This document shows positions 2,371 through 47,107 of a stretch of 64,000 nt of DNA, one piece after another. The stretch comes from Octopus vulgaris (taxonomy: Eukaryota). How positions within the stretch are numbered: the stretch's first letter is position 1; each line of letters starts with the position of its first letter. The stretch covers positions 38,750,001-38,814,000 of the forward strand of contig OX597821.1 in NCBI GenBank assembly GCA_951406725.2, given 5' to 3'. The position numbers were made by a program, and so were the translations under genes. The notes beneath the pieces are model-generated. The model saw nothing but the letters and a program-made list of their open reading frames with translations. It did not search any database and was not told the DNA's origin.

Positions 2371-2526
2371 GTCCAGCATATCGATTCCTCTATAATTACT
2401 TCTATCTAAGCCATCTTGCCCTTTGTAGTAGCTGACTATAAAGGGGTTACAACAGTCAGATATATGTTTGTGTGTGTGTGTGTGTAAATAGAACCAAAAT
2501 TTCAGGAATGGAGTAGATGAAGTCCA

Positions 2527-2613
2527 GGCTACAAATGTTTCATAGCTAGCAGAACCTCGGAAGTAGCAAATTATCCAAACAAGTGGGGTAGACAACAAAC
2601 TGCTCTTCAGGCC
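2527..2613 (-). ncRNA. Type I hammerhead ribozyme motif, core intact
   Basis: Minus strand reads ggc-CTGAAGA-gcagt...gctat-GAAAC-ATTT-GTA-gcc; helix I ggc/gcc, helix II base weak. Confidence 0.7.
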
Positions 2614-2690
2614 AAGGACACCTTGATTATATGAAGTTTACATTGTCGTTAGGAGATTCTGTGTAAACTTCATACAATCAAGGTACCCTT

Positions 2691-2794
2691 GGAATGAAGA
2701 GTAGCATTTACAGTCAAATCCCTTCCCCCTGCTTCATGTCTTTTGGATGATTTACTACTTCTGTGGTTCTACTAGCTAAGAAACATATGTAGCC
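2691..2794 (+). ncRNA. Type I hammerhead motif, core C3 mutated
   Basis: gga-ATGAAGA-gtagc...gctaa-GAAAC-ATAT-GTA-gcc; palindromic helix III ACATATGT. Confidence 0.6.
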
Positions 2795-3124
2795 TGAACT
2801 TTATCTGCTTCATTCCCTAAATATGGGATGTTTATTTGCATAAGCAACAACCCCTGTTGCTAACCATGTACTATAAAATTAACTTTTAGGAAAAATTCAC
2901 AACCTTTTGCAACAATAAACCAGTTTTTTTTCTGAAAGTTGTTTTTTTATATCTTCTACAAATCGCTTGAAGCTCACTGACTTCCTACACCTTGATCCTT
3001 GGATCTTACCTTTGCATATCTTTATATAAATATATCATTTGAAATGTATAGTATTAAATATTCATCATGGCTGATCTTACCAATCAGAAGGGAATATGTT
3101 GCCACATTCCTTTCCATATTGGCT

Positions 3125-3207
3125 AACTCTGGTGAGCGTAAGGTTATATAATCGGATTGTTACCTAACACTCCATTGTATTCTTTACGCAAAACCAATTG
3201 ATAAGAT
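3125..3207 (+). ncRNA. Decayed type I hammerhead motif
   Basis: CTGGTGA (3129-3135), helix II gcgtaagg/ctttacgc, AAAAC-CAATTG-ATA; three core transitions from CTGATGA..GAAAC-CAATTG-GTA. Confidence 0.5.
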
Positions 3208-4307
3208 CAATGGTAATAGATGCTTAATACTATACATTTCAAATAATAAACCCTCTCTGCTGACAGATATATGAGTGCATCTTTTCCCTGACTTATGGTT
3301 TCTCAGATGACTCCCACATGCCTATATATAAAAATGTATGTATATTTTTTGTCTTCTTGTTCATGAATCAAAACATTTTGGTAATAAAAAGCCAAGCTGC
3401 CATAAATTGTTCAAGTTGGCTATCAACACACAATCACTAATTTGGAGTGAAAAATCAATTAATATCCCTGTGAAATCTAGCTTACCTGCTATTTTCAGAA
3501 GTTTCAATGACCATGAATAGCTCAATAAAGGCTTTACAGAATGGCCAAAATGAAATAGAAAAAAAATGAGGAAAGAGATGAAAACAATGGTGGTTGGTGA
3601 TGGGGTGGGGATGCTATAGAAAATATTTAAAATTTTAATTTCGAAGAACTTTTGTCTTAACACGAGTATTTCAAGTGTATGACAAACATTAAAAGCGAAA
3701 AATATTTGAAAAGTACGATAAAGAGGTTGAGGGTTAAAGATTTGCAAAACATGGAGTTTTGGAAAAATTTTATATTTTAAATGCAAATTACATTTTTGAG
3801 ATTGTTGGTATTATAAAATAACAAAAGACAGCAAAAAAGCCTCCACCAAAAAAATTTCATTTTTAATGGTGACAACTATTAGAAAGTATGGAAGGGAAGA
3901 GGTATGAAAATTGAAAAACATGGATTATTTCAATATTCTTTATTTATTTCATGCAAATTCCAGGTGTTTCAAAATGTGGGATTTTATTAAATATGAAAAA
4001 TGATATTTAAAAAATTCTAATTTAATTTTAATAGTGACAAGTTATTTACAAAGTCTGTTATATTGCATAGGTGAGTTTTTGTGAGAAACAACAAAAGAAC
4101 ATAATGTTTGAAATAAAGCAAATAAGAAAATGAGATTTTTATTAAAGCATCTTGCACAGAACAACCTTTACAAAACATAAACAGTGCCATATTTAGTTTT
4201 AGTGGGGAATTTAATGGGGGTTTTGATTCATTGGAAGGTTATCTTCCACTATCGTCTTCACTTTTGCATAAGGACTGCAAGAAAATTCCGGTGGCAGGGT
4301 GTCACAT

Positions 4308-4862
4308 TCATCATCATCATCATCGTTTAATGTCCGCTTTCCATGCTAGCATGAGTTGGACGATTTGACTGAGGGCTGGCGAACCAGATGGCTGCACCAG
4401 GCTTCAATCTTGATCTGGTAGAGTTTCTACAGCTGGATGCCCTTCCTAACGCCAACCACTCCAAGAGTGTAGTGGGTGCTTTTTACATGCCACCGGCACA
4501 GGACCAGTCAGGCAGTACTGGCAACGACCTCGCTCGAATCTTTTACACATACCACTGGCACAGGTGCCAGTAAGGCAATGTTGGTAATGGTCACACTCAG
4601 ATGGTGTCTTTTACGTGCCACCAGCACAGAGGCCAGATAGCCGCTCTGGCAACGATCATGCTCGGATGGTGCTCTTAATACCCTACTAGCATGGGGCTCG
4701 ATTGCCAGTAAGGTGACGCTGGTAACGATCACACTCGAATGGGGCTTTTTAAGTGCCACTGGCACAGAAGCTGGTTGGCCGCTCTGTCAATGATCACACT
4801 CGTATGGTGCTCTTTGTACTCCGCTAGCATGGATGCCAGTCATCGAATTTGATTTTGATTGT
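4308..4862 (-). mobile_element. RTE 3' UTR and tail with tandem hairpin array
   Basis: (CAT)n tail, ttccatgctagcatg, ctacagctggatgcccttcctaacgccaaccactc, ~60-70 nt repeats; same tail as the RT-bearing copy at 22092-23651. Confidence 0.88.
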
Positions 4863-43930: not shown

Positions 43931-44395
43931 TTAAGTTATGAGGATATTAATGATCAAAATAGTTAAGTATGCATACTAATTCATATATCGGTTGTCATGG
44001 CATTAGAGACATACTGACAGATTTGCAGGGGAGCTTTAAAATAAAAGCAAAACATATCTGCAGTTATCTACTCTGTACCTATTGATGAAAAAAATTCATT
44101 CAATTTTTTTTTATTGATATTGATTTTCCTCTGAGCACATGCATAAATATACTTTGGCTGTTTAATGTTGAGTCATTAAAGAAATGTTTACATATCTAAG
44201 CATTATAAATAACTAAAGCAAATATTTTTTAAAAAAAAGTTCTTTGCTTAAACTTTGGTGAATCCTGTAACCATGGTCAACAGTGTTATGCAACAGAAAT
44301 TTTATAACTGGATATACTGCAAGCTGCTAGAGTGTAATGTTGTGATACAGGGTACCACTGTCACACAACACATGCTAGTATCATAATAAATCTGA

Positions 44396-44580
44396 AGGTG
44401 GTGAGCCGGAAGAACCATTAGCATGCTTAGCACTATTTCATTTGTCTTCATGTTCTGAGTTCAAATTCTGCCTTCATCCTTTTGGCATCAATAAAATAGG
44501 TACCTGTTCACCACTGGAGTTGATGTAATCAACTTGCCATCTCCCTTGAAATTGCTCGCCTGGTGCCAAAATTTGAAACC
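44396..44580 (+). mobile_element. SINE, Meta-domain-like family
   Basis: TSD agtatcataataaat / agtatcacaataaat. Confidence 0.85.
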
Positions 44581-46354
44581 AGTATCACAATAAATTGTAA
44601 AATAAAATATTTTTATTGATGTGACTATGTATTGTGAAGTCAAGAGTTTTAAATTCCACATTACATTCATATGTAACACACCCAAGCTATTTATCTCTTG
44701 ACAGCCCATTCCATATTCTTGTAAGTACCTCAAGACAGCATACTTTAATGTTTGAAGGGGTACCTTATTGCCCTCACAATTAATTTACTCCTTTAAACAT
44801 TAAACTTTATTTTCTTGATCCAAGATATTACACTGACAAATAGGCAAATTTAAAATAATGATATGGTAAAGTTTACTAAGGGTGCCCTTTGTATAAAGAA
44901 TATATTGTTAAGCTGCAAAGAAATTACACTTTATTGATGAGGTCTAGGGAGATTGAAACATGTCATCATAGCTATCAAGAATCAGACTAACTCCCCACTT
45001 CTGCATATCTCGGATTCATTTTCAGTCAACTGAAATTTCAAGAGTTCTCTCCTTTGTCATTTTTGAGAACAGATTTCATTAATGCTAATGGCTTGTCTTT
45101 TCATTGTAAGCAAAATTTCTATCGATCAAAATTTATTTCAGACTCACCACCTGAAATATGGATGCTTACACTTACCTATGTGTTCTTCATGGGCAGAAGA
45201 CATCTTGGGAAAAGTTTCCAATGTTATGATTATATTTTGCATACTTAGTGAATTATTTAATATTATCTGTCAGTTGGTAAAGTACACCAAATATTCAAAT
45301 ACATGGGGCCACCCAAAGCAGTGTTAGTGGATTTGGTAGAGTAACTGAAAGCAGCCTGTCATATATCCTTGCATGTGATATATTTGTACCTCTTTACCTC
45401 AATGTCACAGGTGAGTTATAAATGAGCATTGCTGTCTCTAGTTTCTTGTCTTCTCTGAAAACATGTTTGGCCATGGAAAAATATTAGGATATCTGACCAT
45501 AGACGATCTTCCTTGACAAAAGCAAGCATAGAAAAGTGGACATTAAAATGATGAGGATGATGATGATGATGATGGAACTGGAACAAAAATGGTTGCATTT
45601 TAAAAATGAGAGCAACCAATTTCATTTGGTGAAAATGTGATGTACGTTAGATGACATTTTCTAGATTTACTGTGATTTTAGTATCTTTTGAAGAAAGAAG
45701 CAAAATTTACAATGTAATGCAAATTGGATAAAATATATTTTTTTGTGATTTTTAAATTCTAGCGATTTAAAGTCTGGTGCCATAGTTTATGCAAGTTTTC
45801 AGTCTTTAACTCAAATATCAAAAGACATCCAGTACACTCTGTAAAGTGGTTGGTATTAGGAAGGACAGCCAACTGTAGAAACCATACCAAAGCAGAGACT
45901 GAAGCTCAATGCAGTTCTTTAGATCATTGGATTCTGTCTATCCTACCAACCCAAACATGGGAAACAGGTGTTAATTGATGATGGATCCACTTTATTGCAA
46001 ATCTAAACAGGCTATTGAAACTGCAATGCTCAGCAAAATCTGATCCATAAACATTAAAATAGGGAGTTGAAAAATGACTAACATCTGTTAATAAGTATGT
46101 GCACAGGAAAAGTTGCTTAAGTGACCCCACTGATCACAGGTGCTGCACTGGTTGCTTAGGATAACATTCAAATCAATATCAAATTGATATGAAGATTAAG
46201 TAATTAGATATTCAAGTCTCAAATATATAAATTTGGACAATAATCTTTCAGATTTGTAACTGACCTGCATTCATCAATAAACCTGTGATATATTTAATGA
46301 TGTTTGAACAGGTTTATATATCATATTATATGTCATTATATATATATGTCTGTC

Positions 46355-46572
46355 TATCTCTCTCTCTCTCTCTCTCTCTCGTATGTATATCTATCTATCT
46401 ATCTATCTATCTATCTATCTATCTATCTATCTATCTATCTATCTATCTATATATATATATATACATACATATATATATATATATATATATATATATATAT
46501 ATATATATATATATATATATATATATGATATATATATATATATATATATATATATATATTATTTATATATAT
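46355..46572. repeat. (CT)n-(TCTA)n-(TA)n compound microsatellite
   Basis: Direct. Confidence 0.95.
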
Positions 46573-46672
46573 ATGACAAAGCTAATAGTGAAGGATCATC
46601 AACCAGGGCAAAATACTTCATAAGTACACCTGGCTAACAATATTGTTTAGATTAGTGAAGACTTTCAGAAAC

Positions 46673-46795
46673 GGCTCTGATGAAAGTAGCATTAATTTTC
46701 TTAGGTTGTTCAATTAACTTCAATTGATCGATAAACCAACTGAGTAAACCTATCAGTAATGAACATATAATGATTACTGGAAACAGCTGTAAGCC
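46673..46795 (+). ncRNA. Type I hammerhead motif with long helix II insertion, core intact
   Basis: ggct-CTGATGA-a-agtagcatta...taatgattact-g-GAAAC-AGCT-GTA-agcc; lies in an island (46573-46851) bounded by (TA)n on both sides. Confidence 0.75.
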
Positions 46796-47107
46796 AAATT
46801 TGCTCTAATAAAGCAATTACATGTAATGGCCATTATTTTTAACATGTTTCTTATATATATATATATATATATATATTTTATTCTTTTATATGTTTCAACC
46901 CTAAGGCTGAGGCCATGCGAGGCAGCAGTAAGCAATGTGTACCAAAAAGGAAAAGTATAACACATTCACTCACATTATATATATATGTATATATGTGTAT
47001 ATATATACATATATACACACAAAAACATACACATATATACACACTACATACATACATACATACATACATACATACATACATTCATACATGTTTGTATGTA
47101 TGTATGT

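Follow-up and report, generated by a model that had tools for sequence, protein, structure and literature searches.

In the portions of Craig et al. (2021; PMC8557442) covered here, Hydra-1_Obim is entered as targeting (TA)n and as carrying a hammerhead ribozyme, two plant hammerhead rows have a loop 2 of up to about 30 nt, and the retention of introns by Penelope-like elements is called unexplained. The Penelope element of D. virilis has an intron in its 5′ untranslated region (UTR), near the start site, and this intron ends at the 5′ side of helix I (PMC4209133, covered in part). An antisense template has been proposed for Penelope-like elements (PMC3846280), and hammerhead cleavage as a dimer through a palindromic stem III has been reported by Lunse et al. 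2017, as summarised in the covered part of PMC6765202. Here we describe hammerhead islands in a 64,000-nucleotide stretch of the Octopus vulgaris genome, hereafter the window (contig OX597821.1, positions 38,750,001 to 38,814,000; G000:C8:38750001-38814000), with the 2.8 Gb assembly of 227 contigs as the genome-wide search space. Judged by their sequence, the islands are type I hammerheads, with a CUGANGA, GAAA and UH core and helices I–III, for which cleavage is predicted. They are the 3′ ends or leaders of Hydra-clade Penelope-like elements, a known kind of element and no new system.

Hammerhead cores in the window and across the genome

A preliminary description of the window had listed seven hammerhead motifs and one remnant. 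The letters it describes are present at all eight places, but the whole core (CTGANGA, GAAAC and GTA) at only four of the seven motifs: 2530–2610 on the minus strand, 8638–8678, 39491–39564 and 46677–46791. This compares with 0.03 whole cores expected from shuffles, three patterns summed. Two further motifs have changed cores, CTGGTGA and AAAAC at 3129 (+) and AAAAC at 9006 (+). The motif at 2691 (+) is without box 1 and is the head-to-head partner of that at 2527 (−), the two forming one insertion. What had been taken for a remnant at 25949 is the last 120 bp of a minus-strand Penelope-like copy and falls 3′ of that copy's hammerhead. In none of the 14 other loci examined does the family match include the CTGAAGA at 25962. 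The hammerhead of this family sits further upstream and is not present in the window.

The window contains members of six dispersed families, each spread over many contigs. First-look candidates number 294 for family A (motif at 8633), 1,545 for B (46673), 1,983 for C (2527), 1,443 for D (3125), 888 for E (9000) and 1,854 for F (39487), and 40 were scored per family. The whole core stands in 81 of the 139 family copies read (D, 7/20; C, 13/25; E, 19/20).

Genome-wide, the exact pattern CTGANGA-gap-GAAACNNNNGTA gave 11,301 matches at gaps of 14–44 nt (control, 601), 27,120 at 45–75 nt (control, 541) and 6,081 at 76–106 nt (control, 515), which amounts to 44,502 matches against 1,657 in the controls; the three patterns do not capture loops of 6 nt (as in family D), cores with CCGA, cut sites that are not GTA or spacers above 106 nt, and may count one site twice. 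Intact cores thus occur once per ~63 kb, and the figure of one motif per 8–9 kb given in the preliminary description is not their genome-wide rate; the window, with four exact cores in 64 kb, is richer than the genome average. Among 70 unselected matches, loop 3 is an exact palindrome in 44 (chance, about 1 in 16) and in 54 when G–U pairs are allowed, and helix I has at least 3 bp in 48, against 13.5% of cross pairs. We quote the unselected 70 throughout because helix means for own pairs are inflated in motifs chosen for pairing. A (TA)4 run lies within 300 nt downstream in 38 of the 48 motifs with such a helix I, against 18% of random window positions, in agreement with the adjacency to TA tracts first described. 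The preliminary description was right in taking these for type I hammerheads whose loop 3 is palindromic, and in assigning them to multi-copy families linked to Penelope-like elements and (TA)n.

They are not minimal in size, contrary to the term used there. Several window helices II span 54–96 nt, the small form (helix II of 4–8 bp with a short loop) being found only in A and E, and 33,201 of the 44,502 genome matches (about three quarters) have 45–106 nt between the boxes. Helix covariation, proposed at the outset as a check, was found: across 20 copies of one lineage, three of 16 predicted helix II pairs change on both sides, two of them through G–U. Of the 117 matches that a scan with Rfam returned at E ≤ 5, none was to a hammerhead family; the combination of a long helix II and a tiny helix III likely falls outside the models. 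Descriptor searches with a short loop 2 would miss most hammerheads in this genome. The first helix II pair is G–C or G–U in only 24 of 62 cluster representatives, and A–A, U–U, C–A, A–G or A–C in 28.

Carrier elements and the copied template

At locus L193, two direct hammerhead copies 4.8 kb apart flank an open reading frame (ORF) for a reverse transcriptase (RT) and a GIY-YIG endonuclease. A search with the L193 RT gave 12,973 first-look candidates, with several open frames of more than 820 amino acids (aa) among the 150 scored. Profiling of 52 of 88 homologues showed intact ORFs of 838–955 aa with hammerhead end repeats, including L265–L268 with 85-nt hammerhead spacers, alongside broken elements with spacers of 73 and 99 nt. 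In both ORFs checked (L262 and L265) the RT is followed by GIY-YIG, with RWK-like, DKT, YRDD and CxCX5C motifs. By these motifs and by their anatomy, the carriers belong to the Hydra clade. The Neptune clade, our first guess, was dropped against the published definition of Hydra. With Pfam, neither the two ORF pieces and four homologues nor two unrelated frames gave anything significant; one element protein has 61% identity to a match from Octopus bimaculoides over a third of the protein.

A full element comprises an end repeat, the ORF, a long 3′ UTR (up to 2–3.5 kb) and a second end repeat. The end repeat contains a short leader exon, a GT–AG intron of 1.0–1.3 kb and the hammerhead core, 13 nt past the acceptor. 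In each family the 3′ ends fall at two positions. Of 140 loci, 29 have an inverted partner and one has a direct second hammerhead copy within ~1.5 kb. Such an anatomy has already been published for Penelope elements. Collinear ORF remnants lie upstream of A in 3 of 30 loci (endonuclease), of D in 5 of 20 (Hydra-type ORF) and of C in 1 of 25 (endonuclease), with variable 5′ ends. The proposal that several non-autonomous families occur here thus lacks support for A and D, which run into the ORF, for C, on its single endonuclease remnant, and for E, a spliced leader (below). For B and F, no ORF was found within 1.6 kb upstream in 14 loci of each, chosen for long 5′ extent.

That B, F and perhaps E are self-propagating, non-autonomous, retrozyme-like elements, copied in trans by a Hydra enzyme, is possible, although we consider it unlikely. 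The lack of an ORF in these B and F loci would fit, as would the fixed 5′ end of E and the 93–99% identity among its top copies, and Li 2026 (10.64898/2026.07.22.740005, in the part covered) ties retrozymes to Penelope end repeats. However, a direct second hammerhead in just one of 140 loci departs from the tandem arrangement of retrozymes; the 5′ ends of B and F form a ladder, extending at least 550 and 230 nt upstream, respectively; Hydra 3′ UTRs reach beyond the B and F loci examined; and the leader variants of E match unspliced parents subfamily by subfamily.

Some features of the carriers are recorded for their own sake. L265–L268 have open frames of 736–955 aa around the RT, and their hammerhead has a GUC cut site, most others having GUA. 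In the L262 and L265 ORFs, RT and endonuclease are separated by long asparagine-rich linkers that resemble the N-rich inserts of rotifer Penelope elements. L191/L192 and L194 contain inverted arms, 1.85 and 4 kb long, that are more than 99% identical and consist of 3′ UTR with internal tandem repeats; if transcribed, these arms would form long double-stranded RNA. A 221-aa intron-less frame, which we take to resemble deoxycytidylate deaminase, lies in a local duplication adjoining a hammerhead copy (L198:6770-7432 and L199:2770-3432).

Family E bears on the template from which these elements are copied. Its copies begin at nearly one point, ~40 nt ahead of the core. In the long copy at L191, the leader lies 1,316 nt upstream of the core and is followed by GTAAGT, and a TTTTAG acceptor precedes the core; the same layout of donor, acceptor and E-type hammerhead recurs in seven of eight further donor loci, with introns of ~1.0–1.3 kb. 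Exact matches number 93 for the joined form and 12 for unspliced donors, with none in the controls, and the window copy itself carries the join at 8992|8993. An unselected sample of 14 matches from the clade of E held nine clear joins (7 of 11 sites), three unspliced copies and two that were undecidable; the clear joins span several helix II types, with matching donors in sister elements. The E tail is 88–89% identical to the 5′ UTR ahead of the ORF in L193 and L262, and at L338 an E-type end is fused to part of an RT. Across 31 ORF-bearing loci, the intron is kept in most elements with a detected end repeat. At L329 and L333, a longer 3′ UTR intron has been lost from an upstream donor, and the hammerhead lies ~240 nt after the ORF. 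L333 has upstream-donor intron loss at all three repeats. Contigs from three sequencing runs presumed to be RNA, and from a fourth run, compared with the parent of E, contained one joint that ends at the acceptor but comes from a different upstream place. Such exact loss of a GT–AG intron as the genomic copies have, in sense orientation, suggests that the template was spliced sense RNA.

In one lineage, 97 of 100 copies among the matches listed (of 641) cross the predicted cut with at least 7 nt upstream, which agrees with the finding in vitro that uncut RNA is the main template (PMC11167929, in the portions covered). A pile-up of 5′ ends at the cut was not seen: two of eight nearby truncation events fall within 2 nt, about as expected by chance, with a pattern that required A or T 23 nt upstream and so dropped some truncated copies. 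By this measure the ribozyme does not make the copy ends. It is likely that the elements are copied from sense, spliced, uncut RNA.

We propose that the islands are short pieces of the end repeat with its hammerhead, inserted into (TA)n, probably by the enzyme that the element itself encodes, and that the template is likely sense RNA left uncut by the predicted ribozyme. As inferred after Frangieh 2024, copying would begin a short way downstream of the hammerhead, at either of two fixed points, and proceed toward the 5′ end. A start in the downstream repeat would yield a ladder of 5′-truncated ends and, rarely, a full intron-keeping element (A, C and D), a route on which B and F are placed by anatomy only. 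A start in the upstream repeat of a spliced message would yield an intron-less copy of 165–250 bp reaching to the likely start site (E). Selection would act on active masters, whereas inserted copies would decay neutrally.

Loop 3 and probable pairing between molecules

The preliminary description gave each family its own helix III palindrome. Loop GATC is common to A and E, and AGCT to B and F; in D, the commonest two letters give CGATTG, with CAATTG in 5 of 20 copies. The 191 motifs from all loci fall into 62 clusters, of which AGCT heads 16, GATC six, ACGT five, and ATAT and GTAC four each; eleven perfect palindromes occur. The inner loop 3 pair is Watson–Crick in 52 of the 62 cluster representatives, and in 58 when G–U is included. 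Loops also change within lineages (GATC/GATT/AATT and ACGT/ATGT/ATAT). The palindrome is therefore not specific to a family: AGCT alone is at the head of 16 clusters, and loops switch within lineages.

Neutral decay should yield each G–U form and its A–C mirror equally. Genome-wide, GATT occurs 2,907 times against 377 for its mirror AATC, and ATGT 1,582 times against 380 for ACAT, whereas a control loop for which no amplified variant was seen gave 447 AGTT and 429 AACT. Among the matches listed, G–U forms include many identical copies, and mismatch forms are scattered singles, bar one local tandem run. In a loop-masked tree of 39 motifs the order is ATAT, ATGT, ACGT, with ATAT motifs as outgroups and two ACGT copies among ATGT. 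The change in ATGT affects the innermost pair, which is impossible in a hairpin, and the pattern therefore favours pairing between molecules. Thus, the amplified G–U-compatible loops support selection on dimer pairing, and the pairing code likely shifts only through forms still able to pair. The ribozyme would likely work as a dimer, held by the loop 3 palindrome and helix I.

The G–U excess could instead reflect strand-biased mutation in the masters (for example, A-to-I editing or deamination) combined with founder effects, an explanation to which we give little weight. It gains from the small number of independent events, with ~4–5 amplified GATT subfamilies and ATGT found mostly in one lineage (subfamilies judged by eye in the first 100 matches listed), and from the composition of the sense strand, which is T- and G-rich, with a TG/CA skew of 2–3 fold in three long UTRs and of 14 to 3 at the codon joints of one ORF; the skew could favour the same changes in masters. 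However, decay products are symmetric, both in the control loop and in family A (two GATT, two AATC), TG/CA is 22 to 28 in the other ORF, and one lineage likely gains CpG (ATGT to ACGT), counter to the skew. Moreover, no amplified AATC or ACAT subfamily was seen among 200 matches listed, bar the local tandem run, and mutation bias leaves the eleven different perfect palindromes unexplained.

By its geometry, a dimer would pair helix I as well as loop 3 between the two molecules. Compatibility between motifs was assessed in 44 self-compatible representatives. Of their 946 pairs, 204 fit in the loop and 75 in the loop and both helices I; 72 of these 75 have the same loop, and 72 of the 130 same-loop pairs also fit in helix I. 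A and E have the same loop and unlike helices I, whereas B and F agree in both. The idea that the palindrome is a family address, selected to differ between families so as to restrict which copies activate each other, draws on these low fractions, on the stability of loops within a family and on the weakness of predicted duplexes between unlike loop classes, but it is very improbable, given at most 16 perfect 4-nt loops, few loops serving many families, more than half of same-loop pairs fitting in helix I as well, and sister subfamilies that have the same loop or a cross-compatible G–U step. From the 75 fitting pairs and the helix I of A and E versus B and F, any address would be at the level of clades, a weaker form that survives as a prediction. 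The palindrome is a pairing constraint common to clades, not a family address.

Taken as a whole, Hydra end repeats inserted into (TA)n, an uncut sense template, a dimeric ribozyme and a clade-wide pairing constraint explain the islands best, and in this combination we have good confidence. Besides the few G–U events, the strand skew and the B and F loci already described, several observations count against it. C is tied to an ORF by one locus only; L193 is apparently spliced at its 5′ repeat only, and its join rests on 7 nt; an intact full-length parent of E was not found, as the long form at L191 stops short of the ORF. The spliced copies could also have multiplied from a few intron-less masters, instead of arising one by one from messages. 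Support for the root of the loop tree is weak, and in single-strand folds the lowest-energy form of the window copies is not the hammerhead, the folds being uninformative except for D.

On balance we lean, by a narrow margin, towards a more specific joint reading. The intron-less copies in sister families would reveal a sense, spliced, uncut template; introns would survive because the next generation would be founded by the unspliced downstream repeat alone; and the loop walks of tens of thousands of long-stem hammerheads, through G–U forms only, would be evolutionary evidence for dimers in the cell, with clade-level groups defined by loop 3 and helix I. If true, the antisense-template model would be ruled out for these elements.

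Copies in the window and comparison with known systems

Near the start of the window, an inverted, 5′-truncated family C copy (2494–2667, −) has its core at 2610–2530, with 62 nt between the boxes and loop ATTT (family, ATAT). Its partner, with the broken box 1, occupies 2662–3035 (+) and has loop ATAT followed by the family C 3′ tail. An inverted family D fragment (3030–3085, −) comes next, with a D copy (3087–3345, +) that has a decayed core at 3129–3203, a long stable helix II (z −5.6), a 6-nt loop and then the tail. A 5′-truncated 3′ end of family A with its tail (8568–8930, +) holds the hammerhead at 8638–8678, with 22 nt between the boxes and loop GATT (family, GATC). The inverted tail of family E (8945–8981, −) equals the 5′ UTR ahead of the ORF in full elements; the spliced leader copy of E (8982–9150, +) has the end of exon 1 at 8982–8992 and the hammerhead, in which G12 is changed to A, at 9006–9045, and its 3′ end lies in (TA)n. 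The family F copy (39441–39668, +) has its hammerhead at 39491–39564, with 55 nt between the boxes, loop AGCT and a damaged helix I. An inverted family B tail (46578–46661, −) adjoins a B copy (46660–46857, +) with the hammerhead at 46677–46791, 96 nt between the boxes and loop AGCT. The 120 bp at 25968–26088 (−) belong to a young Hydra-type family, in which L287 has a long open ORF start; the hammerhead core of this family is CCGAAGA, with U4 changed to C, in each of the four loci inspected (L283 and L286–L288).

The window has many microsatellites, and no clear gene was found among its 19 frames of at least 130 aa, read by eye. The open frame at 59809–60285 presumably resembles the C-terminal part of an RTE-type retrotransposon protein. 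Related tandem units of 26–138 bp at 4565–4832, 23235–23490, 39854–40010 and 61125–61282 have in common a TAAAAAGCAC-like word and are probably one repeat family.

In the portions of the published work covered here, the Hydra-clade elements of PMC8557442 are among the closest known systems. They have in common with ours the C-terminal GIY-YIG and the RWK, DKT and CxCX5C motifs; they target (TA)n and have end repeats, a tail and inverted truncated copies; and their hammerhead lies near the 3′ end and has an additional or mispaired nucleotide at the foot of helix II. However, loop 2 measures 3–10 nt in the 26 published Hydra rows, whereas most spacers here are 45–106 nt; helix III there has 3–4 bp with a loop of 1–3 nt, in place of the even palindromic loop 3; and those elements are mostly shorter than 3 kb, whereas the elements here reach 5–6 kb, with an end-repeat intron and dozens of families. 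The hammerheads of Cervera and de la Pena 2014 (PMC4209133) agree with those here in the type I core, in a helix I that is short, in the palindrome of loop 3 and in the dimer proposed for them, and occur likewise as thousands of mostly single copies in many families. They differ in a helix II of 7–8 bp and in number, as a genome there has up to ~9,000 motifs, compared with the 44,502 matches in this one, and the covered portions do not describe a loop-switching path or spliced genomic copies. The small dimeric hammerheads of Lunse 2017 (through PMC6765202) follow the same principle of a dimer through palindromic stem III.

The Poseidon element PAc studied in vitro (Frangieh et al. 2024, PMC11167929) likewise has two internal start points that give rise to the tail, uncut RNA as main template and an AT-rich target. 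In PAc the hammerhead and the start codon overlap, and the two points at which copying begins are inside the ORF, whereas both lie in the 5′ UTR here; spliced products are not discussed in the covered portions. Non-LTR retrozymes (PMC7229834; 10.64898/2026.07.22.740005) are also non-coding hammerhead repeats related to Penelope end repeats, but form tandem monomers of ~300–390 bp, whereas the window families almost never stand in direct tandem.

The literature searched contained no long-stem octopus hammerheads, G–U loop switching or spliced Penelope copies; Lunse 2017, Arkhipova 2003 and bioRxiv supplements lie outside this coverage and may bear on the point. Three features apparently are new, as read from the genome: spacers of 45–106 nt with compensatory changes, amplified G–U loops and copies with exact splice joins. 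The basic finding is known biology, and the side results are of interest to specialists. The natural series of loop switches provides a ready test of dimer pairing, and the spliced genomic copies bear directly both on the intron retention called unexplained in PMC8557442 and on the antisense proposal of PMC3846280, as far as these sources are covered here.

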